This document shows positions 9,584 through 36,105 of a stretch of 64,000 bases of DNA, one piece after another. The stretch's first letter is position 1; each line of letters opens with the position of its first letter. The stretch lies in assembly GCF_058153355.1 (NCBI RefSeq), contig NZ_CM177019.1. One strand, 5' to 3'. The notes beneath the pieces were generated by a model. That model was not told the DNA's origin, searched no databases, and saw nothing but the letters and a program-made list of their open reading frames with translations. A program made the translations under genes and the position numbers.

Positions 9584-11566
9584 TTACCATTGATAACTAA
9601 CGAAAATTTTTCCGTTACGACCATCCTGTGGGATGCCTTGCGGCGACCAGTACTCTTTGTCGAAGGCGTTGCCCAATACCAGAGTAGTGGTCATACCTTT
9701 GAGCGCCTGCTGCCCTTGATAACTGACGTAGAAATCATTCACACCATAGCCAGGTTGTTTGCTGTAACTGCTGCTGATATGTGTTGAGCGATCGGCAAAC
9801 GTACCGACCCAACCAACAGAGAAGCCACTGTGAGCGATCGGAATATTCAGGGTGCTGGTAACGGTATCCGGGTTAATACTGGAAATATATTCCCCGGTAT
9901 CGGTGTCTTTGCCGCGGGTACGGTTATAGGCCACATCAAGGCTAAACAGATCAGTGGTATATTTCGTCATCACATCCCAGCCCCAGATTTTGGCGTTCGG
10001 GACGTTATACGACATAGTTGTCGCCGCCGCGAAATCGACAGTCGTGGAGATGTAATCCTTCGCTTTGGTATCAAAGTAGCTGGCTTTAAATTCCAGGGCA
10101 TCATTGGACAACATCAGGTCATCAAAACGCAGCCCAAAACCGTACTCCTGAGTTTCGTTAGTTTCCGGACGTAAGTTCGGGTTTGGCACCCAATAGTTGG
10201 TATAGAAGCGACCAATCGAGAAGTGCTTAGAATCGTTATACATTTCGCCCATCGTCGGGGCGCGGAATGCCTGGGCATATGAGCCAAATAACATCAGCCA
10301 GTTGGTCGGGTTGATAGTCATCCCCGCACGAGATGACCATTTGTCAGCATCAACATCTTTGTAGCCGTCGCTGCTACCGTGATAACTGTCATAGCGGGTT
10401 CCGCCAAGCAGGGTAATCGGCAGATCGCGTAAGGTGATCTCATCCTGTAGCCAGCCAGAGCTAAAATCGATTTTTGCTTGCGGAAAGCCCGTCGTCGCGC
10501 CACCCGGATGTTGTTCCTGACGATAATACTCACCGCCATATGTCAGTAAGTGAGAAGCGAAACTGTCGGCAAATAGAGTGGAACGGTTCTCCAGCCTGGC
10601 TCCTTTTGTTATCTGTTCACGATACTCGCCGGAACTCCCCGTGTTTTGCGCATTAATACGGACTTCCGACCAGTAAATTTTTGCATCTGCATTTAACCAG
10701 TCGTTGCCCTGCGGGGCGAGTTTATAAGAAAGCTGCGCATCGCGTTGAATTGTTGAACGATCAACCATCGGGTTGCTGTTTTCAGAAGCCTCAACGGTCT
10801 GCGGATTTTTTGGTTCACGCGCGTCGTTGTTGTAGTAACGCACTAAACCGCTCAGAGACTGGGCTGAATCAATTTGCCAGGTCCCTTTCGCCAGCATGTT
10901 ATTAATGGACTCGTCATTCGGCGCGGTTTCACCATTGCTCTGGCGTAAATCACCCCGATCGCGACTGGACCAGGCCACAATACCATCCAGATTTTCAGTT
11001 CGCCCAAACGCGCTCGCGCCTAATCCCAGGCTATGGTCCCCCGTGCCACCAGTACCAAAGACACGAAAACCACTACTTTGTCCTTCCTGCAATAAATCTT
11101 TTGCATCGACCGTATCGTAGGAGATCACCCCACCCAGCGCGCCACTGCCATACAGTAATGCTGAAGGTCCGCGAACAATCTCAACACGCTTGATCAGCGC
11201 CGGATCGAGAAAAGTACCATTCAGATGTCCGGTATCCGTTCCCTGGCGAACACCATCGACAAGAACCAGCACGCCGCGATGATCATAGCCACGCATATTT
11301 ACATCCTGACCGTTGGTTCGTCCGGTACCATCAAGAGTAATTCCAGGAACATGACGCAGCAGATCGGTGGCTGAAGTAGCCGTTTGATTTTCAGGAGCGG
11401 AAGTGTCGATGACGCTGACCATCATAGGCGCTTCGAAGGAACTACGGGCATTCCCCGTTGCCGTAACGGTCATGGTTTCAGTAGCAAAAGCAAACGTTGG
11501 CAAGGTGGCAGAAACAGCCAAAGCCAACAAACTCAAACGCAACGAGGTAAATTGCGGACGTGACAT
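9584..11566 (-). CDS. chuA: TonB-dependent outer-membrane haem/haemoglobin receptor ChuA (660 aa)
   Basis: ORF 9584..11566; signal peptide, plug and barrel motifs, C-terminal ...KIFVSYQW; matches ChuA/ShuA. Confidence 0.95.
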   Translation of the reverse strand: MSRPQFTSLRLSLLALAVSATLPTFAFATETMTVTATGNARSSFEAPMMVSVIDTSAPENQTATSATDLLRHVPGITLDGTGRTNGQDVNMRGYDHRGVLVLVDGVRQGTDTGHLNGTFLDPALIKRVEIVRGPSALLYGSGALGGVISYDTVDAKDLLQEGQSSGFRVFGTGGTGDHSLGLGASAFGRTENLDGIVAWSSRDRGDLRQSNGETAPNDESINNMLAKGTWQIDSAQSLSGLVRYYNNDAREPKNPQTVEASENSNPMVDRSTIQRDAQLSYKLAPQGNDWLNADAKIYWSEVRINAQNTGSSGEYREQITKGARLENRSTLFADSFASHLLTYGGEYYRQEQHPGGATTGFPQAKIDFSSGWLQDEITLRDLPITLLGGTRYDSYHGSSDGYKDVDADKWSSRAGMTINPTNWLMLFGSYAQAFRAPTMGEMYNDSKHFSIGRFYTNYWVPNPNLRPETNETQEYGFGLRFDDLMLSNDALEFKASYFDTKAKDYISTTVDFAAATTMSYNVPNAKIWGWDVMTKYTTDLFSLDVAYNRTRGKDTDTGEYISSINPDTVTSTLNIPIAHSGFSVGWVGTFADRSTHISSSYSKQPGYGVNDFYVSYQGQQALKGMTTTLVLGNAFDKEYWSPQGIPQDGRNGKIFVSYQW

Positions 11567-11855
11567 AGCGATTCTCCATGAGGAAAATAAAAAATGCTGG
11601 CTGCCTGGGTTAATACCGGGGTGGCTTGCGAGAAATAAATTTATTTAAAATTCAGAGCGATAATATTCGCCGGGTGAGTTTACAGGCGTTTATATCCCAT
11701 GAAATTGCCTGGTATCTCGGCAAATACGCAAAAGCACGCCCTCTTTGTCAGGCAAAACGATATGCCCCATCAGGAGTGAAGAGCGCTGTGCGTTATCCCT
11801 TGCAAATGCTATGGTTTTGTTATCCATATGGTCGTGTTTTGTTAAGCGCGAACGT

Positions 11856-11874
11856 GATAATGAGAATTATTATC
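11856..11874. promoter_or_regulatory. Fur box upstream of chuA (about 290 bp before the start codon, implying a long leader)
   Basis: gataatgagaattattatc, about 16/19 to the consensus GATAATGATAATCATTATC. Confidence 0.6.
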
Positions 11875-12203
11875 GATCAATTTTTTATGATCAAGCTTTT
11901 TTTAACCGCCATTAACACAATAAACAGGGGGTTATGAAACCTATCCTGCGCCCTGGAAACCACTTTGTTTTTATGGTTATTCCCCCATGACCTCATCACT
12001 AAACTTTGTCGTTAACAGTGATAATTTTCTCTTCTCTTTGCTCTGCAAGCCGCGATATCTCTGGGTTCTCAGCTTTTTCCCGCGCTGAAATTTAGTCGGT
12101 AACAAGAACGTTAGCTGACGAAGCATCTTGATAAAAATCAAAAATAAATACGCTTGTAACGCCTTGCGTATTGAATCGACGGTTGTATTTCATATATAAC
12201 TCA

Positions 12204-12225
12204 AATGATAATCATGATCATTCTC
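12204..12225. promoter_or_regulatory. Fur box overlapping the chuT promoter
   Basis: aatgataatcatgatcattctc, about 25 bp upstream of the chuT ATG at 12249. Confidence 0.65.
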
Positions 12226-12248
12226 AATTTGATAAGAGTTCTCATATT

Positions 12249-13163
12249 ATGCCAAGGATCATCACCAGGCCGTTTCTTTTTTCCCCACTGACGTTATGTA
12301 TTTCAGCCGTGGCCTCTGCCGCGAAGACCGCGGTAAAACGAAAAAAATTGTTTACGGCAGTACTGGCTCTTAGCTGGGCTTTTAGCGTAACGGCTGCCGA
12401 ACGTATCGTGGTCGCAGGAGGATCGCTGACGGAGCTAATCTACGCGATGGGCGCTGGCGAACGCGTGGTTGGTGTCGATGAAACGACATCTTATCCACCA
12501 GAAACCGCCAAACTGCCGCATATTGGCTACTGGAAACAACTCAGCAGCGAAGGCATTTTGTCACTTCGCCCGGATAGCGTAATTACCTGGCAGGATGCCG
12601 GGCCACAAATTGTGCTCGACCAACTACGAGCGCAGAAAGTCAACGTCGTCACCCTGCCGCGTGTGCCTGCCACCCTTGAGCAGATGTACGCCAACATTCG
12701 CCAACTGGCAAAAACGCTACAGGTTCCTGAACAAGGCGAGGCGCTGGTGACACAGATCAACCAACGCCTGGAGCGAGTACAGCAAAACGTGGCGGGCAAA
12801 AAAGCCCCGGTTAAAGCCATGTTTATTCTCTCCGCAGGCGGAAGTGCGCCACAGGTTGCCGGTAAAGGCAGCGTCGCGGACGCCATTCTTTCGCTTGCCG
12901 GAGCAGAAAACGTCGCAACCCACCAGCAGTACAAAAGCTACAGTGCAGAATCACTGATTGCGGCTAATCCAGAAGTGATTGTCGTAACCTCACAAATGGT
13001 CGATGGCGATATTAACCGGCTACGTTCTATTGCCGGAATTACCCACACTGCCGCATGGAAAAACCAGCGCATTATCACCGTTGATCAAAACCTGATTCTG
13101 GGAATGGGTCCGCGTATTGCTGATGTCGTTGAGTCTTTACACCAGCAGCTTTGGCCGCAATAA
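12249..13163 (+). CDS. chuT: Periplasmic haem-binding protein ChuT (ABC transporter substrate-binding protein), 304 aa
   Basis: ORF 12171..13163; the ORF-track start lies upstream of the Fur box/promoter, so the start is placed at the ATG at 12249 (MPRIITRP...). Start is uncertain and could be further downstream. Confidence 0.8.
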   Translation: MPRIITRPFLFSPLTLCISAVASAAKTAVKRKKLFTAVLALSWAFSVTAAERIVVAGGSLTELIYAMGAGERVVGVDETTSYPPETAKLPHIGYWKQLSSEGILSLRPDSVITWQDAGPQIVLDQLRAQKVNVVTLPRVPATLEQMYANIRQLAKTLQVPEQGEALVTQINQRLERVQQNVAGKKAPVKAMFILSAGGSAPQVAGKGSVADAILSLAGAENVATHQQYKSYSAESLIAANPEVIVVTSQMVDGDINRLRSIAGITHTAAWKNQRIITVDQNLILGMGPRIADVVESLHQQLWPQ

Positions 13164-13182
13164 ATGGATTTAAATCAGACGA

Positions 13183-14520
13183 ATGAACACAAATAACCCC
13201 CTGGATCTCACGCCACATTTTGCTTTAGACGGTGATCAGCCATTTAAAGACAGGCGCGCCATGATGCCGTTTCGTGGGGCCATTCCAGTTGCCAAAGAGC
13301 AACTGGCACAGACCTGGCAAGAGATGCTCAATCAAACGGTATCACCACGTAAGCGACTGGTTTATCTACACATTCCTTTTTGTGCAACACACTGCACGTT
13401 TTGTGGTTTTTATCAGAACCGTTTTAATGAAGATGCGTGTGCTCATTATACCGACGCCCTGATTCGTGAAATAGAAATGGAAGCGGACAGCGTATTGCAT
13501 CAGTCTGCCCCCATCCACGCGGTCTATTTCGGTGGCGGCACGCCTTCCGCGCTTTCGGCACACGATTTGGCCAGAATTATCACCACATTACGAGAAAAGC
13601 TGCCACTGGCCCCTGATTGTGAAATCACTATCGAAGGCCGGGTACTGAATTTTGACGCTGAGCGAATCGATGCTTGCCTTGATGCAGGAGCAAACCGCTT
13701 CTCAATTGGTATTCAGTCGTTTAACAGCAAAATCCGTAAGAAAATGGCCCGCACCTCGGATGGCCCAACCGCCATTGCGTTTATGGAAAGCCTGGTCAAA
13801 CGCGACCGTGCTGCGGTGGTCTGTGACCTTCTGTTTGGCCTGCCGGGTCAGGATGCGCAAACCTGGGGAGAAGATCTGACTATTGCCCGCGATATCGGTC
13901 TCGACGGCGTCGATCTCTATGCGCTCAATGTCCTGCCCAATACACCGCTGGGCAAAGCCGTGGAAAATGGGCGTACTACCGTGCCCTCTCCGGCAGAACG
14001 ACGCGATCTTTATCTGCAAGGGTGTGACTTCATGGACGAAGCTGGTTGGCGCTGTATCAGTAACAGCCACTGGGGCCGTACCACACGCGAACGCAATCTC
14101 TATAACCTGCTGATTAAACAAGGTGCCGATTGTCTGGCCTTTGGTTCCGGAGCCGGCGGTTCGATTAATGGTTACTCCTGGATGAACGAACGCAGTCTTC
14201 AGACCTGGCATGAATCCGTCGCGGCAGGCAAAAAACCGCTGATGATGATCATGCGTAACGCCGAACGTAATGCGCAATGGCGTCATACCTTGCAGTCAGG
14301 TGTTGAAACAGCGCGTGTACCGCTGGATGAACTTACGCCACATGCCGAAAAACTCGCGCCGTTACTGGCTCAATGGCACCAAAAAGGCTTAAGCCGCGAT
14401 GCTTCAACTTGCCTGCGGCTGACTAATGAAGGTCGTTTCTGGGCAAGCAATATTTTGCAGTCTCTTAATGAACTAATTCAGGTACTTAATGCGCCAGCGA
14501 TTGTGCGTGAAAAACCATAA
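13183..14520 (+). CDS. chuW: Radical-SAM HemN-like haem-degrading enzyme ChuW (anaerobilin synthase), 445 aa
   Basis: ORF 13183..14520; radical-SAM CxxxCxxC motif (CATHCTFCGF); position in the chuTWXY operon. Confidence 0.9.
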   Translation: MNTNNPLDLTPHFALDGDQPFKDRRAMMPFRGAIPVAKEQLAQTWQEMLNQTVSPRKRLVYLHIPFCATHCTFCGFYQNRFNEDACAHYTDALIREIEMEADSVLHQSAPIHAVYFGGGTPSALSAHDLARIITTLREKLPLAPDCEITIEGRVLNFDAERIDACLDAGANRFSIGIQSFNSKIRKKMARTSDGPTAIAFMESLVKRDRAAVVCDLLFGLPGQDAQTWGEDLTIARDIGLDGVDLYALNVLPNTPLGKAVENGRTTVPSPAERRDLYLQGCDFMDEAGWRCISNSHWGRTTRERNLYNLLIKQGADCLAFGSGAGGSINGYSWMNERSLQTWHESVAAGKKPLMMIMRNAERNAQWRHTLQSGVETARVPLDELTPHAEKLAPLLAQWHQKGLSRDASTCLRLTNEGRFWASNILQSLNELIQVLNAPAIVREKP

Positions 14521-14532
14521 CAGGAGTGATTT

Positions 14533-15027
14533 ATGAGCCATGTCTCGTTACAAGAATTTTTGAAAACGGAGCCGGACGGTACGCTGGAGGTGGTAGCCGA
14601 ACAATACAACACCACACTGCTGGAAGTAGTGAGAAATCTACCCTCCTCTACCGTAGTGTCAGGCGATAAATTCGATACTGTCTGGGATACCGTCTGCGAA
14701 TGGGGCAACGTCACCACGTTAGTACATACTGCCGATGTAATCCTCGAATTTAGCGGCGAACTGCCTTCGGGTTTCCATCGCCACGGCTATTTCAACCTAC
14801 GCGGAAAGCACGGCATGTCCGGGCATATCAAAGCAGAAAACTGCACACATATTGCCTTGATCGAACGTAAATTTATGGGCATGGACACCGCATCCATTCT
14901 CTTTTTCAACAAAGAAGGCAGCTCAATGCTGAAAATCTTCCTCGGCAGGGATGACCATCGTCAGCTCCTGAGCGAACAAGTCAGCGCCTTCCATGCTCTG
15001 GCAGCATCGTTAAAGGAACACGCCTGA
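14533..15027 (+). CDS. chuX: Haem-binding/chaperone protein ChuX (164 aa)
   Basis: ORF 14533..15027; operon position; stop overlaps the chuY start. Confidence 0.85.
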   Translation: MSHVSLQEFLKTEPDGTLEVVAEQYNTTLLEVVRNLPSSTVVSGDKFDTVWDTVCEWGNVTTLVHTADVILEFSGELPSGFHRHGYFNLRGKHGMSGHIKAENCTHIALIERKFMGMDTASILFFNKEGSSMLKIFLGRDDHRQLLSEQVSAFHALAASLKEHA

Positions 15028-15650
15028 TGACGCCGTGGCTACTCTTTGGCGCAGGCGGAAAAGGTGTGGGTGCCAGAACGCTTGAACTGGCGCTGGCGGA
15101 ACAACGTCCGGTCGTTGCTGTCATTCGTCATGCTGATGCTGCCACGAAACTGGCGCAACAAGGCGTACAGGTTTTTACAGGCGACGCCTGTGATGCCAGC
15201 GTAGTCGCGGCTGCTTGCCGCGCAGCTGGCCCGGATGCGCTTATCATCTCAACAATGGGCGGAGCTCAGGATTATCTGGCACACAGAACAGTGATTGATG
15301 AGGCCGAAAAGGCCGGCATCAGTCGCATGATTCTGGTGACCTCTTTGGGATGTGGCGATAGCTGGCCGTTTTTATCGGAGCGGGCAAAGGCTGCGTTTGG
15401 TCAGGCGGTACGGGAAAAAACGCTGGCGGAAAGCTGGTTGCAAACCAGCCAGCTTGATTACGCCATTCTCCGCCCTGGCGGTCTGCTTGATGGTGCGGCA
15501 ACGGGCAAAGCACAACGGATACAAAATCAGGAGTGTCATGGTTTTGTTAACCGTGTCGATGTCGCCGCACATATCCATGAACTGGCAAATGCGCCAGCAC
15601 TTAACCAGCAGGTCTACAGTCTGATTGAACCGGACCTGAAACCGGCGTGA
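15027..15650 (+). CDS. chuY: NAD(P)H-dependent anaerobilin reductase ChuY (207 aa)
   Basis: ORF 15027..15650; N-terminal Rossmann motif (GAGGKGVGAR); start overlaps the chuX stop. Confidence 0.85.
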   Translation: MTPWLLFGAGGKGVGARTLELALAEQRPVVAVIRHADAATKLAQQGVQVFTGDACDASVVAAACRAAGPDALIISTMGGAQDYLAHRTVIDEAEKAGISRMILVTSLGCGDSWPFLSERAKAAFGQAVREKTLAESWLQTSQLDYAILRPGGLLDGAATGKAQRIQNQECHGFVNRVDVAAHIHELANAPALNQQVYSLIEPDLKPA

Positions 15651-15698
15651 TCCCCCGGCGCGGAATCTCCGCGCCGTAATGTCGTAACGGAGTTTTGC

Positions 15699-16691
15699 GT
15701 GCTCAAGGATTCACTCTCTTCCGCCAGGGTCTTTATGGGGCTATCACTATTATTGCTAGCTCTGGTGCTGTTCGGTGCCAGTCAGGGAGCGTTAAAGATC
15801 AGTTTTGATGCCCTTTTTGATGAGGAATACCGCGATATCTGGCTCAATATTCGTCTACCACGGGTTTTGCTGGCGGTGCTGGTAGGTGCAGCGTTGGCAA
15901 CCGCCGGGGTAATTATGCAGGGGCTTTTTCGCAACCCAATGGCTGACCCTGGATTACTCGGCGTCAGTAGCGGTTCTGCATTAATGGTTGGCGTTGCTAT
16001 TGTGCTGCCCTTTTCCTTCCCAGTGGTGCTGGTGCTCTATGAGCAAATGGTGTTTGCCATTGCCGGAAGTTTAGTGGTCTGCACCATCATTTTTCTCATC
16101 ACGCAGCGCCATCGCGATGGAAGCATGATGCAATTATTACTCGCCGGTATCGCCATCAATGCCCTGTGCGGCGCAGCGATCGGCATCCTGAGCTATATCG
16201 GCGATGAGCAGCAGCTACGACAACTCACATTGTGGATGATGGGCAATCTTGGACAGGCGCAATGGCCGACGTTATTGGTTGCCAGTTCATTCATCCTACC
16301 GGCCATTATTGCAACAACTTGTCTCGCCGGAACGCTGAATTTACTGCAGCTCGGTGATGAAGAAGCCCACTACCTCGGCGTGAACGTTAAGCGTAAACGC
16401 CAGCAATTACTGTTAGTGAGCTCACTGCTCGTTGGTGCCGCCGTATCGGTAAGCGGCATTATCGGCTTTATTGGCCTGGTGATCCCGCATCTGATTCGTA
16501 TGACTACCGGGGCAAATCACCGCTGGCTAATCCCTTGCTCCGCCCTCGCCGGAGCCTGTTTATTGCTGATGGCAGACACGCTTGCCCGCACACTGGTACA
16601 GCCAGCAGAAATGCCCGTGGGATTATTAACCAGCCTGCTTGGTGGCCCTTATTTTATGTGGTTGATTCTGCGCAACCGGAGGATCACATGA
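15699..16691 (+). CDS. chuU: Haem ABC transporter permease ChuU (FecCD family), 330 aa
   Basis: ORF 15699..16691; polytopic FecCD-type permease. Confidence 0.9.
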
Positions 16692-17458
16692 TCAGCGCCC
16701 AGAATCTGGTTTATAGCCTTCAGGGGCGGCGTCTGACTGATAATGTCTCGCTGACTTTTCCCGGTGGGGAAATTGTTGCCATTCTCGGCCCTAATGGTGC
16801 GGGAAAATCTACGCTGCTTCGCCAGTTAACCGGCTATCTTCAACCTGATAGCGGCGAATGTCGGTTGTTTAATAAGCCATTAAATGAATGGTCGATTACT
16901 GAACTGGCGAAACACCGGGCCGTGATGCGTCAAAATAGCCACATGGCGTTTCCATTCAGCGTACAAGAAGTTATCCAGATGGGGCGGCATCCGCATCGTA
17001 CTGGTAATCAGGATAATGAAACAGCACAAATAATGGCGTTATGTGACTGTCAGGCGTTAGCAAACCGCGACTATCGGCAATTATCCGGTGGTGAACAACA
17101 GCGCGTGCAATTAGCGCGCCTGCTGGTGCAACTCTGGGAACCAACTCCCTCACCGAAATGGTTATTTCTTGATGAACCAACTTCGGCGCTGGATATTCAC
17201 CATCAGCAGCACTTGTTTCGTTTATTACGCCAGCTAGTTCACGAACGGCAGTTCAATGTTTGCTGCGTATTGCACGATCTAAATCTTGCCGCGCGTTATG
17301 CAGACCGTGTTGTATTAATGCAAAAAGGAAAGGTTATCGCAAATGGTAAACCGCAGGACGTATTGACACAGCAGGCGCTGACAATGCTCTACGGCGCGGA
17401 TATTACCGTACTTAAAGATCCTGCCAACCATTCACCACTGATCGTCCTCGATCATTAA
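16688..17458 (+). CDS. chuV: Haem ABC transporter ATP-binding protein ChuV (HmuV), 256 aa
   Basis: ORF 16535..17458 trimmed to the ATG at 16688 (ATGA overlap with chuU stop); Walker [10 protein letters not shown], signature LSGGEQQR, Walker [12 protein letters not shown]. Confidence 0.9.
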
Positions 17459-17464
17459 AACCAA

Positions 17465-17489
17465 CAGGAGTACCGCTCTGGTACTCCTG
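17465..17489. terminator. Bidirectional terminator hairpin between convergent chuV and yhiD
   Basis: caggagtacc-gctct-ggtactcctg, perfect 10-bp stem. Confidence 0.6.
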
Positions 17490-17509
17490 CGAATAAATAA
17501 CTATATAGA

Positions 17510-31815: not shown

Positions 31816-33495
<1,680 letters not shown>

Positions 33496-33501
33496 TATTT
33501 T

Positions 33502-33532
33502 TACAGCCAGCCGCTAACTTCCTACTGGCTGT
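33502..33532. terminator. Bidirectional terminator hairpin between convergent treF and yhjB, just upstream of IS4 copy 2
   Basis: tacagccag-ccgctaacttccta-ctggctgta, flanked by atttttt and aaaatt. Confidence 0.55.
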
Positions 33533-33555
33533 AAAATTATCCTCTTCAGGAGGAG

Positions 33556-34981
33556 TAATGCCGATCAGTTAAGGATCAGTTGACCGATCCAGTGGCTGTG
33601 TAAGAATCCGGAAACGCTCACTTGTTTCCGGATTTTTTTATGCACATTGGACAGGCTCTTGATCTGGTATCCCGTTACGATTCTCTGCGTAACCCACTGA
33701 CTTCTCTGGGGGATTACCTCGACCCCGAACTCATCTCTCGTTGCCTTGCCGAATCAGGTACTGTAACGCTACGCAAGCGCCGTCTTCCCCTCGAAATGAT
33801 GGTCTGGTGTATTGTTGGCATGGCGCTTGAGCGTAAAGAACCTCTTCACCAGATTGTGAATCGCCTGGACATCATGCTGCCGGGCAATCGCCCCTTCGTT
33901 GCCCCCAGTGCCGTTATTCAGGCCCGCCAGCGCCTGGGAAGTGAGGCTGTCCGCCGCGTGTTCACGAAAACAGCGCAGCTCTGGCATAACGCCACGCCGC
34001 ATCCGCACTGGTGCGGCCTGACCCTGCTGGCCATCGATGGTGTGTTCTGGCGCACACCGGATACACCAGAGAACGATGCAGCCTTCCCCCGCCAGACACA
34101 TGCCGGGAACCCGGCGCTCTACCCGCAGGTCAAAATGGTCTGCCAGATGGAACTGACCAGCCATCTGCTGACGGCTGCAGCCTTCGGCACGATGAAGAAC
34201 AGCGAAAATGAGCTTGCTGAGCAACTTATAGAACAAACCGGCGATAACACTCTGACGTTAATGGATAAAGGTTATTACTCACTGGGACTGTTAAATGCCT
34301 GGAGCCTGGCGGGAGAACACCGCCACTGGATGATACCTCTCAGAAAGGGAGCGCAATATGAAGAGATCAGAAAACTGGGTAAAGGCGATCATCTGGTGAA
34401 GCTGAAAACCAGCCCGCAGGCACGAAAAAAGTGGCCGGGACTGGGAAATGAAGTGACAGCCCGCCTGCTGACCGTGACGCGCAAAGGAAAAGTCTGCCAT
34501 CTGCTGACGTCGATGACGGACGCCATGCGCTTCCCCGGAGGAGAAATGGCGGATCTGTACAGTCATCGCTGGGAAATCGAACTGGGATACAGGGAGATAA
34601 AACAGACGATGCAACTGAGCAGGCTGACGCTGAGAAGTAAAAAGCCGGAGCTTGTGGAGCAAGAGCTGTGGGGTGTCTTACTGGCTTATAATCTGGTGAG
34701 ATATCAGATGATTAAAATGGCGGAACATCTGAAAGGTTACTGGCCGAATCAACTGAGTTTCTCAGAATCATGCGGAATGGTGATGAGAATGCTGATGACA
34801 TTGCAGGGCGCTTCACCGGGACGTATACCGGAGCTGATGCGCGATCTTGCAAGTATGGGACAACTTGTGAAATTACCGACAAGAAGGGAAAGGGCCTTCC
34901 CGAGAGTGGTAAAGGAGAGGCCCTGGAAATACCCCACAGCCCCGAAAAAGAGCCAGTCAGTTGCTTAACTGACTGGCATTA
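33556..34981 (+). mobile_element. IS4 copy 2 (1426 bp), same orientation as copy 1
   Basis: Same termini as copy 1; its own 12-bp target duplication cttcaggaggag at 33544..33555 and 34982..34993; the transposase ORF is identical at the protein level to copy 1. Confidence 0.9.
33640..34968 (+). CDS. insG: IS4 transposase InsG (442 aa)
   Basis: ORF 33622..34968; identical translation to the ORF at 1441..2787. Confidence 0.9.
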
Positions 34982-34983
34982 CT

Positions 34984-35586
34984 TCAGGAGGAGATATTTA
35001 ACATCATTGCCGCCTGGGTGCGATTTTTGACTTCCAGACGGCGATACAGTGATTCCAGATGCGCTTTCACCGTTCCGGTACTGATATTCAGCGCCCTGCC
35101 GATCTCTTTATTTGATTCGCCCGCCGCTAACATGGTTAAAATCTCCCGCTGGCGGGCGCTTAACGATTTGAGATCTTTAATGTCCTTTTCCGGCGTCGTT
35201 CGCCAGTCTCCAGGCAGAAACATCATCCCCATCGCCGCACTATTGACCGCCAACGCAAATGTCTCGACGGTTGAATCACGAGGCACAATGGCCAGCACAT
35301 TAAAATGAATAACTTCCTGTAACCACCGTTTGTTGCAATCCGTCGCCGTAATTAACACCTTAACCTCAGGAAATTGCACCACGGTTTTTTGCAGCAACCA
35401 GTAGCAAAACTCACCATCCTGATCGCCATCGAGCATCACTAAGGCTTCAGGGTAACTTTCCAGCTTTTGCCATAACTCGTCTGCCTGACTGGCCCCCTGA
35501 ATACTCACTCCTGGAATACGATGCTGTAAACTGATTTTCATTCCATGAATAAATATTGACTGCCTGTCAAACATGACTATTTGCAT
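34984..35586 (-). CDS. yhjB: LuxR/FixJ-family response-regulator-like protein YhjB (200 aa)
   Basis: ORF 34984..35586; C-terminal LuxR HTH; the stop codon lies inside the right IS4 target repeat. Confidence 0.85.
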   Translation of the reverse strand: MQIVMFDRQSIFIHGMKISLQHRIPGVSIQGASQADELWQKLESYPEALVMLDGDQDGEFCYWLLQKTVVQFPEVKVLITATDCNKRWLQEVIHFNVLAIVPRDSTVETFALAVNSAAMGMMFLPGDWRTTPEKDIKDLKSLSARQREILTMLAAGESNKEIGRALNISTGTVKAHLESLYRRLEVKNRTQAAMMLNISS

Positions 35587-36105
35587 AACTGAATCTCCAC
35601 CTGAATACGTTAAAAAGACTTAAGTAGTGGAAGGGTATTACCCGCGAGAAAAAATAAGAATTCGCCATTTGGCGGTGGCCATTCTACAGAGATGACGCGT
35701 AGAAAATAGTTACCGATATAAATAGTTACAGCTAAACGCCTGAAATTACATGTCGAGGGCATTATTTAAAACAATTTTGAGGATTTCCTTATATTGATGG
35801 CTAGTACGCATGCAATTAAAAATGAAATTCCGCGACCACAAGCCAAAATAACAAACGGCAATGAGACAAAAATAAGCACAAATAGCCAATACGTCCTCTG
35901 TTCACTTTAAAGGGAATCGCTGAAAAATACGCTCTGTTTAAGGGGATTCACCGTTCTCATAAAGCTATTCTCCCCTTTTCCTGCTGAGAAATCGCCACAT
36001 TCGTCATGACAACATTGTGAAACCCGGCATTAGATGTTAGAAAAAACAATAAACAATGCGATATGCGCGTTACTGTTTCGCTGTGAACAACAATCGGTCA
36101 AAGAA

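Follow-up and report, generated by a model that had tools for sequence, protein, structure and literature searches.

IS4 Separates the Convergent Genes treF and yhjB

The locus described here lies within a 64,000-nt stretch of contig NZ_CM177019.1 (RefSeq assembly GCF_058153355.1), hereafter the window, in which a copy of IS4 occupies the spacer between two convergent genes. One of these, treF (31846..33495, + strand), encodes an intact cytoplasmic trehalase of 549 aa, as indicated by its match to Pfam Trehalase (E=3.6e-171) and by the treF annotation of homologous loci. The other, yhjB (34984..35586, - strand), encodes an intact LuxR/GerE-type HTH regulator of 200 aa, identified from its open reading frame, a profile match, and comparison with an IS-free strain. 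A search of positions 33000-35700 for Rfam families returned none at E values up to 1.

The inserted element, IS4 copy 2 (33556..34981, + strand), is 1426 bp long and 100% identical to a second copy in the window (copy 1, described below). Its left (33556..33573, +) and right (34964..34981, -) terminal inverted repeats each comprise 18 bp, with TAATGCCGATCAGTTAAG and TAATGCCAGTCAGTTAAG matching at 16/18 positions. The insG gene (33640..34968, +) encodes an intact transposase of 442 aa with Nterm_IS4 (Pfam, 3e-33) and DDE_Tnp_1 (8.7e-32) domains, which scores 304 bits against the NCBIfam model transpos_IS4_1 (cut-off 115). Beginning at residue 307, InsG carries a Y-x2-R-x3-E-x6-K motif, which is part of the definition of the IS4 family (PMC2266710). 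Full-length near-identity to a known element, a single DDE ORF, the YREK motif, inverted repeats of ~18 bp, and the length of the target duplication identify the element as IS4, of the IS4 subgroup of the IS4 family, and as an ordinary intact copy. The IS4 of K-12 (insG, b4278; NC_000913.3 4502090-4503515) shares with copy 2 its 1426-bp length, inverted repeats, 12-bp duplication, and single 442-aa transposase ORF, and is identical to it at 1423/1426 bases; the 3 nt that differ are accompanied by two amino-acid differences in InsG. Unlike copy 2, the K-12 element resides at its own chromosomal site between yjgZ and nanX, with the duplication CAGAACCAAGAT, and the window, unlike the K-12 locus, holds two copies of one IS4 allele within 32 kb. 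The ends of the element, its duplication, and its near-identity to K-12 IS4 confirm an earlier note on this DNA, which had placed an IS4 copy between treF and yhjB.

IS4 duplicates approximately one helical turn of its target, 11-13 bp. In the whole window the 12-mer CTTCAGGAGGAG is found at just two places, abutting IS4 on the left (33544..33555) and on the right (34982..34993), whereas 0.11 matches at up to 1 mismatch would be expected in shuffled sequence. The functional stop of yhjB (TGA, the complement of 34984-34986) lies in the right copy together with the last two codons, and the left copy holds an orphan version of this stop. Because the duplication takes in the yhjB stop, both genes stay intact, and YhjB, which terminates in MMLNISS, is identical over its 200 aa (100%) to YhjB of the IS-free strain MFDS1022581. 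The earlier note was thus correct that the target repeat spans the stop with the reading frame kept and that the insertion lies 2 bp from it (2 nt separate the stop from the IS end at 34981). The comparison with an IS-free allele that it had suggested reveals an unchanged YhjB and a single copy of CTTCAGGAGGAG at empty sites.

The Native Spacer Hairpin Is a Poor Candidate for a Bidirectional Terminator

Immediately downstream of treF, the segments TTTTACAGCCAG and CTGGCTGTAAAA form a hairpin (33499..33536) with a 12-bp stem, of which 5 bp are G-C, and a 14-nt loop, arranged as TTTT-stem-loop-stem-AAAA. It folds significantly better than shuffled sequences on both strands (dG -15.1 on + and -18.9 on -). 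The hairpin was not called by a terminator scan. Its loop is longer than the about 3-8 nt of intrinsic terminators, and it has no proper U-tract: the stem is followed by UUAUCCUC on the + strand and by AUAUUAUG on the - strand, each with 4/8 U, and on either strand an A-run comes after the G+C core.

Published Term-seq data for K-12, whose spacer is IS-free, cover the + strand at this position and list 0 3′ ends at the hairpin (PMC7815308 supplements). Without the Rho inhibitor bicyclomycin (BCM), + strand reads are equal upstream and downstream of the spacer (41 versus 44), although other transcripts may contribute to the 800 nt over which downstream coverage is counted. The treF/yhjB spacer is classed as Rho-dependent, and 278 nt beyond the treF stop, within yhjB and antisense to it, a + strand 3′ end is mapped (PMC7815308). 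On the + strand evidence, the hairpin probably does not act as a bidirectional terminator, the role assigned to it in the earlier note. The distances given there fare better. The hairpin does now lie 1.4 kb from yhjB, and the insertion is 11 bp downstream of it when the distance is taken from the end of the stem's G+C core (33532) to the repeat (33544). That figure does not hold for the full 12-bp stem (ending at 33536), from which it is 7 nt to the repeat and 19 to the IS.

Terminator-like Structures Reside Just Inside Both Ends of IS4

The right end of IS4 contains an inward-facing terminator (34942..34977, - strand; dG -17.5 kcal/mol) composed of GCCAGUCAGUU-AAGC-AACUGACUGGC followed by UCUUUUUC. 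With an 11-bp stem (6 G-C), a 4-nt loop, and the UCUUUUUC tail, it has the features of an intrinsic terminator by both scan and folding, and it begins 5 nt inside IS4 for polymerases entering from the yhjB side. In K-12 IS4, a Term-seq 3′ end is recorded at the end of this U-tract (4502127, +) under two growth conditions (PMC7815308 suppl. 1), with a Rho region just behind it (PMC7815308); this mapped end derives from the K-12 strain and from another IS4 location. A terminator with such a 3′ end suggests that yhjB transcripts should stop about 40 nt past their stop codon, with a predicted new mRNA 3′ end at ~34944. The earlier note suggested that yhjB transcripts may read into IS4 antisense to insG; the right-end hairpin in their path, the K-12 3′ end, and the Rho region make deep read-through of this kind unlikely.

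At the left end, a second inward-facing hairpin is predicted (33602..33639, + strand; 15-bp stem, 6-nt loop, U7, dG -18.3), located 47 nt into IS4 from the treF side, with its U-run ending at the insG AUG. The K-12 Term-seq tables record no 3′ end for this structure, which, judging from the gene layout, may reflect little or no transcription entering there. Modeling of the fold leads us to predict that it acts on transcripts from treF both as a terminator and as a trap for the ribosome-binding site of insG. A candidate insG promoter (33580..33607, +; TTGACC-16-AAGAAT, with an extended -10 TG) lies nearby, and the start site implied by its position would lie where the 5′ arm of the hairpin ends. 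Sense entry of treF read-through into IS4, as the earlier note envisioned, stands; after 47 nt such transcripts would meet the predicted hairpin-U7.

Probably, then, the end structures of IS4 stop outside transcription from crossing the element. The transposase genes of IS10 and IS50 are shielded from external transcription by RNA fold-back. IS4 resembles these elements in possessing an inward structure that spans the transposase ribosome-binding region and is present only in transcripts begun outside; it differs from them in that its structures have the full hairpin-plus-U form of terminators at both ends.

The Target Site Partly Matches a Symmetric IS4 Motif

The core of the target is the dyad TCCTC-TTCAG-GAGGA (33541..33555), flanked in the IS-free allele by AAAATTA and TATTTAA. 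On the - strand it forms a weak terminator-like hairpin that overlaps the yhjB stop (scan hit from 33554 to 33540). An IS4 target motif built from 73 half-sites, with the treF-yhjB site left out, has the form A5-N3-12 bp-N3-T5, in which a G+C-rich 12-bp dyad (C-N-C-C...G-S-N-G) lies between the runs. Position -18 is A in 85% of the half-sites, and 54/73 have at least 4 A in 6. The IS4 target duplications are palindromic beyond shuffles, although by only ~3 SD over a column-preserving control. When the 61,124 positions of the IS-free window are ranked by this motif, the treF-yhjB site comes 66th. The target matches the motif in part; on the treF side the fit is poor, with 7 nt instead of 3 between the A-run and the duplication.

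Motif score alone is insufficient as the cause of a hotspot, because a rank of 66 in 61 kb implies thousands of equal sites per genome. The proposal that IS4 strictly targets terminators or intergenic DNA is likewise too strong: an ORF is open to the junction at 52% of 62 sites, against 71% of controls. Clean A-run/dyad/T-run targets at bidirectional terminators are found at the rraA-zapB and glgP-downstream IS4 sites.

Work by Habermann, Klaer, and Starlinger in 1979-81 and by Mayaux in 1984 is said to have located IS4 in galT and in the pheST attenuator, at a pseudo-palindromic AAA-N20-TTT target. This formula is compatible with the motif derived here. The treF-yhjB site shares with those classical sites an 11-13-bp duplication, reuse of one site in both orientations, and A-run/T-run symmetry; its poorly matching treF-side arm sets it apart. 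Palindrome-targeting IS elements include IS1397, IS621, and ISRm22 (PMC1525189). Like them, IS4 prefers dyad-symmetric, often extragenic targets; unlike them, it uses a degenerate motif and no repeated REP family, and about half of the sampled sites may be in ORFs.

The Same Position Is Occupied Recurrently in E. coli

Among 5426 complete E. coli genomes, the treF-yhjB site is empty (a single CTTCAGGAGGAG) in 5388 and carries IS4 in 23 (0.4%), 10 in the orientation of the window and 13 in the opposite one; in the remaining ~11 the spacer is neither empty nor IS4-occupied. The duplication is CTTCAGGAGGAG in all nine alleles read base by base (9/9, window included), and MS8345, FDAARGOS_1290, LC-1302-2020, and CFSAN061772 share both insertion point and duplication with the window. 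Relative to the window, the flanks of carriers diverge by as much as ~2.5% and their IS4 by 3-9 bases, the occupied sites holding two IS4 alleles with 3 and 9 differences from that of the window. LC-1302-2020 (+) and CFSAN061772 (-) have opposite IS4 orientations within flanks that show 0 differences over 4.4 kb. With flank haplotype and orientation used to estimate the number of independent insertions, the occupied sites, window counted, fall into at least 8 combinations. The treF-yhjB spacer is thus a nucleotide-precise hotspot for IS4.

The window locus is closest to IS-free strains, its reconstructed empty site being 99.8% identical to MFDS1022581, and over 24 kb no complete E. coli genome exceeds 99.2% identity to the window. 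Apart from GCA_043012465.1 and one Logan assembly, each of them broken at the IS, no source gave an exact TreF match. A scan of one genome per species returned Kosakonia, Photorhabdus, and a probably contaminated Methylobacterium contig, none of them E. coli. In GN02350 and XH988, the IS4 at the site has recombined with another IS4, yielding inversions of 545 kb and 103 kb, respectively. RefSeq labels the insertion in carriers "IS4-like element IS4 family transposase." The site was not found in the literature searched, where the sole related paper concerns a deletion in S. sonnei, and Shigella IS-mapping supplements do not mention it.

Two Identical IS4 Copies Bracket the Acid-Fitness Region

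IS4 copy 1 (1375..2800, + strand) lies inside orfA of an IS66-family element, in direct orientation relative to copy 2, and is flanked by its own 12-bp duplication, CTCTCCGGGAAG (1363..1374 and 2801..2812); the label "copy 2" used in the earlier note is accordingly apt. Two identical copies that each have a duplication of their own point, indirectly, to transposition activity. The copies bracket 30.7 kb (2801-33555) that extends from treF through slp and includes the acid-fitness and chu genes. Copy 1 is a possible recombination partner of copy 2, and two identical direct copies likely render the acid-fitness/haem region deletion-prone in this lineage. In S. sonnei, the acid-resistance region is bordered by an IS4 adjoining treF, and this IS4 has been proposed to mediate loss of the region. 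The window is similar in that IS4 adjoins treF, with two direct copies around the interval from treF through slp. The neighbours of slp differ: aerobactin genes in S. sonnei, chu haem genes and the IS66-family element in the window. Deletion derivatives, in which an IS4-yhjB junction would occur without a treF-IS4 junction, were not found among complete E. coli genomes.

Interpretation

These observations are best explained, with a probability that we place at about 85%, by a standard, near-neutral IS4 transposition into a recurrent site, with the element insulated transcriptionally by its own ends. The transposase would have cut the two strands 12 bp apart within the 50-bp spacer that separates convergent treF and yhjB, at a target with partial fit to the order A-run, ~3 nt, 12-bp dyad, ~3 nt, T-run. 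With treF and yhjB intact, the insertion is probably near-neutral, and near-neutrality would account for finding IS4 at this one nucleotide position, in either orientation, in many unrelated strains. The terminator-like hairpins just inside both ends may then insulate against outside transcription, such that yhjB mRNA would end inside the right inverted repeat and treF read-through would halt before insG instead of continuing antisense into yhjB as in K-12. Direct observation covers the anatomy of the insertion, its recurrence, the target motif, and the 3′ end mapped in K-12 at the right end of IS4; we infer that the insertion is neutral, that the terminators work in this strain, and what the left-end hairpin does.

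Were IS4 instead to uncouple yhjB from its native terminator, yhjB transcription would run far into IS4 antisense to insG, and treF read-through would drive sense transcription of the transposase gene. The displacement of the hairpin at 33499-33536 by 1.4 kb, its better-than-shuffled folding on both strands, and the reality of treF read-through in K-12, by which polymerase would enter IS4 from the left, are in keeping with such an effect. We nonetheless consider it unlikely, because the displaced hairpin has a 14-nt loop, no U-tract, and no mapped K-12 3′ end, because a canonical terminator with a K-12 3′ end and a Rho region behind it stands 5 nt inside the right end, and because a hairpin with U7 directly precedes insG at the left. 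Slightly less probable still is positive selection for IS4 as an insulator that blocks treF antisense transcription through yhjB and thereby alters yhjB expression beneficially. K-12 does produce + strand RNA antisense to yhjB, and a Rho-sensitive region begins at the spacer. Occupancy of the site is also higher than its motif score would suggest, and the occupied sites, window counted, represent at least 8 pairings of a flank haplotype with an orientation. However, carriers amount to 23/5426 (0.4%) with no sign of a sweep, the two orientations are about equally frequent (10 versus 13) despite ends that differ in terminator strength, yhjB is without a known phenotype, and survivorship of neutral intergenic insertions accounts equally well for the excess.

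The site could also owe its occupancy to one or two ancient insertions spread by descent or homologous recombination, with no hotspot involved. Groups of carriers do share junction identities (at the right junction, four at 99.5% and four at 98.8%), and part of the 23 carriers are therefore clonal. As an account of the whole set, this is very improbable: both orientations occur with the same duplication, even on a flank haplotype identical over 4.4 kb, different IS4 alleles are present, carrier flanks differ by up to ~2.5%, and the window locus is nearest to IS-free strains (99.8%, MFDS1022581). Finally, two 100% identical direct copies around 2801-33555 might evoke a composite transposon that carried the 30.7-kb acid-fitness/chu segment to this locus. 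This idea can be rejected with near certainty, since each copy has its own duplication (CTCTCCGGGAAG and CTTCAGGAGGAG) with none shared by the outer flanks around the whole unit, and IS-free E. coli carries the segment colinearly in the same region of its chromosome.

The near-neutral transposition favored above can be extended, tentatively and at somewhat less than even odds, to a broader proposal in which IS4 is a self-insulating element that seeks terminator-like DNA, the spacer is a safe harbour, and the pairing of the two copies primes a 30.7-kb loss. Bidirectional terminators would naturally supply A-run/G+C dyad/T-run motifs, inward terminators would replace the termination destroyed by insertion while shielding the transposase gene, and recombination could remove the acid-fitness/haem-uptake region as reported for S. 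sonnei.

The insertion itself is ordinary and matters little alone, being a known element, at a site already annotated by RefSeq in 23 complete genomes, that leaves both neighbour genes intact. Its value lies in the documentation of a nucleotide-precise natural IS4 hotspot with a data-derived target motif, and of terminator structures at the ends of IS4, one with published 3′-end support. With such structures at its ends, insertions of IS4 between convergent genes need not cause read-through, which is worth knowing when polar effects of IS4 are assessed, whether in annotation or in evolution experiments. In addition, the presence of two identical direct copies marks the block comprising the acid-fitness island, chu, ccp, and treF as a likely unit of deletion or rearrangement in this lineage.

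A complete IS4 element at the yhjB stop codon

The IS4 element lying in the spacer between the convergent genes treF and yhjB (copy 2; 33556-34981, + strand) is complete, spans 1426 bp, and is bounded by 18-bp ends, TAATGCCGATCAGTTAAG and TAATGCCAGTCAGTTAAG, that match at 16 of 18 positions. Its sole long ORF is the transposase gene insG (33640-34968, + strand), encoding a 442-aa protein in which a Pfam search recognizes Nterm_IS4 and DDE_Tnp_1 domains. This InsG scores 304 bits against the NCBIfam model transpos_IS4_1 (cut-off 115) and carries the Y-x2-R-x3-E-x6-K family motif at residue 307, and 3 of the element's 1426 bases differ from the K-12 (NC_000913.3) reference IS4, resulting in two amino-acid changes. 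By every testable criterion, copy 2 belongs fully to IS4.

A perfect 12-bp direct repeat, CTTCAGGAGGAG, flanks the element (33544-33555 and 34982-34993); its two matches in the whole window both abut copy 2, compared with 0.11 in shuffled sequence. The treF gene ends at 33495, and yhjB occupies 34984-35586 on the - strand. The right repeat copy contains the last two codons of yhjB together with its stop (complement of 34984-34986), with 2 nt remaining to the IS end, and YhjB is 100% identical between the window and an IS-free strain. An earlier note had described this insertion as IS4 copy 2, with its target repeat and the preserved yhjB stop, and each of its structural details is borne out. 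Copy 2 is an ordinary insertion, at a site that is recurrent and already annotated. A promoter-like site spans the left junction on the - strand (33536-33564; 9/12 match), with its -35 element (TCGGCA) in the IS4 left repeat and its -10 element (GATAAT) in the flank, and is directed antisense into the treF 3′ end.

The treF-yhjB spacer is a natural IS4 hotspot

A search of the reconstructed empty site against 5426 complete E. coli genomes found it contiguous in 5388, whereas both IS4 junctions were present in 10 genomes in the window's orientation and in 13 in the opposite orientation. With 5422 genomes matched, approximately 11 have a spacer that is neither empty nor occupied by IS4. The insertion point and duplication are identical in all nine IS4-bearing alleles read base by base, the window included. 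Several observations indicate that these insertions are independent: IS4 occurs in both orientations; LC-1302-2020 (+) and CFSAN061772 (-) show no differences over 4.4 kb of flanking sequence and carry IS4 in opposite orientations; two IS4 alleles at occupied sites differ from the window's element at 3 and 9 positions; and junction identities define about 10 classes. Flank haplotype and orientation together give at least eight combinations that share one insertion nucleotide, among approximately 5000 IS4 ends seen in the E. coli collection; this is beyond chance and establishes the spacer as a natural hotspot. The window's own lineage is absent from the complete genomes, the closest of which is 99.2% identical over 24 kb. 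Its exact TreF was found only in GCA_043012465.1 and in the Logan assembly of SRR31441161, which is 100% identical and has the same junction.

What IS4 recognizes was examined using flanks from a one-genome-per-species scan, a metagenome scan and the E. coli loci, giving 73 distinct half-sites with the treF-yhjB site left out. The resulting motif is clear and symmetric, with an A-run lying 4-9 nt beyond the duplication (one position is A in 85% of sites, and 54 of 73 have at least four A in six), approximately three C/G-rich bases between this run and the duplication, and a G+C-rich duplication (64% G+C) that starts C-N-C-C and ends G-S-N-G. The duplications are palindromic beyond expectation, averaging 2.19 pairs versus 1.44 in shuffles (~6 SD), and lie ~3 SD above a column-preserving control. 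Among sites with both flanks available, a far-side T-run is present in most and the native sequence usually folds as a hairpin, some of these being textbook bidirectional terminators, such as AAAAAAGG-CACCTTGCGGTG-CCTTTTTT between rraA and zapB. The 1980s IS4 literature gives the target as AAA-N20-TTT, with which this motif is consistent.

The IS-free spacer, AAAATTA-TCCTC-TTCAG-GAGGA-TATTTAA, is a small dyad set between stretches rich in A and in T. Among all 61,124 positions of the IS-free reconstruction of the window, scored by a simple weight matrix, it comes 66th, ~3.3 SD above the mean, with a better fit in the yhjB-side arm than in the treF-side arm. The match is real yet not outstanding, and motif score alone is therefore insufficient to account for recurrence. 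Survivorship is the likeliest further contributor, in that an insertion keeping both convergent genes intact would escape purging. A strictly intergenic habit for IS4 is rejected: an ORF is open up to the junction in about half of 62 sampled sites.

Transcription across the occupied spacer

The earlier note had regarded the native hairpin between the two genes (33499-33536) as a bidirectional terminator from which the insertion now separates yhjB. The hairpin is real, folding with ΔG values of -15.1 (+) and -18.9 (-) (z scores -3.2 and -4.3, respectively), and is arranged as TTTT-stem-14-nt loop-stem-AAAA, with just four U in the eight nucleotides after the stem on either strand. This reading is not supported by the data: there is no U-tract, a terminator scan makes no call at 33499-33536, and the K-12 3′-end atlas (PMC7815308) places no + strand 3′ end there. 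Adding 3,637,746 to IS-free window coordinates gives K-12 coordinates, and window 33543 thereby corresponds to 3671289(+), scored there as a Rho-dependent region in which coverage upstream/downstream is 41/44 reads without the Rho inhibitor bicyclomycin and 69/205 with it (Adams et al., 2021; PMC7815308). A K-12 + strand 3′ end maps to 3671519, which places it 278 nt beyond the treF stop codon and antisense within yhjB (PMC7815308). These + strand data indicate that, in the IS-free state, transcription from treF continues past the hairpin. The nucleotide closing the hairpin loop, window 33524, is A, and is G in K-12 and the other E. coli alleles read, with the loss of one C-G stem pair.

Both IS4 ends carry terminator-like signals. 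On the - strand, a right-end hairpin (34977-34942; ΔG -17.5 kcal/mol) begins 5 nt inside the element and consists of GCCAGUCAGUU-AAGC-AACUGACUGGC followed by UCUUUUUC. The equivalent K-12 interval is 4502094-4502130, where a Term-seq 3′ end at 4502127(+) falls exactly at the end of the U-tract, with a Rho region just behind it at 4502176(+) (PMC7815308 supplements). Thus, transcription entering the K-12 IS4 from outside is stopped at that end. By this analogy the yhjB 3′ end is predicted near 34944, ~40 nt past the stop codon.

At the left end, a predicted + strand hairpin (33602-33639; ΔG -18.3 kcal/mol), 47 nt inside the element, has a 15-bp stem, a 6-nt loop and a U7 tract ending at the insG AUG; the K-12 Term-seq atlas shows no 3′ end for it. 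A promoter-like site at 33580-33607 would begin transcription at the end of this hairpin's 5′ arm, and the hairpin may be formable only in transcripts from outside IS4. The same logic applies in IS10 and IS50, where such a hairpin is formed only by external transcripts, and the IS4 left end may be likened to theirs. IS4 is thus predicted to shield treF and yhjB from each other, and itself from both, with no long read-through. Given these signals at both ends, the right one coinciding with a K-12 3′ end, the read-through effects proposed in the earlier note (from yhjB into IS4 antisense to insG, and from treF in the sense direction) are unlikely. The idea of a self-insulating IS4 with a terminator-like target preference is of mild interest.

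An IS4 pair enclosing acid-fitness and haem-uptake genes

The second element, IS4 copy 1 (1375-2800, + strand), is 100% identical to copy 2 and has its own repeat, CTCTCCGGGAAG. It has inserted near codon 11 of orfA in an IS66-family element (1256-5162; TnpB_IS66 at 3194-3541, DDE_Tnp_IS66 at 3561-5132), which itself lies where an ArsP-type permease gene (216-1229) ends. None of the 5426 complete E. coli genomes has this IS4/IS66 junction. The two direct, identical copies enclose 30,755 bp (2801-33555) comprising the IS66-family remainder, slp, dctR, a 9-kb chu haem-uptake insert, yhiD, hdeBA, hdeD, gadE, mdtEF, gadW, gadX, gadA, ccp and treF. The ~9 kb between dctR and yhiD (8447-17506) is absent from the IS-free strain MFDS1022581; the sizes of its ORFs, together with a 660-aa TonB-dependent receptor, are consistent with the chu/shu locus, which suggests that the window derives from a chuA-positive lineage.

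Because each copy has a separate duplication, a transposed composite element (IS4-30.7 kb-IS4) is ruled out. The pair is a ready substrate for deletion via homologous recombination, and precedents are at hand. In S. sonnei, loss of treF-yhjA-yhi-hde-slp-iuc has been ascribed to flanking IS4 (PMC6811581). Flanks have been exchanged between the treF-yhjB IS4 and an IS4 at the rraA-zapB terminator (duplication CACCTTGCGGTG) in GN02350 (NZ_CP095518.1), and between it and one downstream of glgP (duplication GACCCTTTGGCC) in XH988 (NZ_CP019355.1), with reciprocal swapping of the duplications and chromosomal inversions of ~545 kb and ~103 kb, respectively. A deletion-prone IS4 pair around an acid-fitness and haem region is of mild interest.

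Outside E. coli, at least 16 contig ends in the Kosakonia oryziphila REICA_142 draft carry an IS4 left end that matches E. coli exactly, indicating IS4 expansion beyond Escherichia. A 265-nt contig of Methylobacterium mesophilicum NBRC 15688 bears CAGAACCAAGAT, an IS4 flank specific to K-12, and probably stems from contamination with E. coli K-12.
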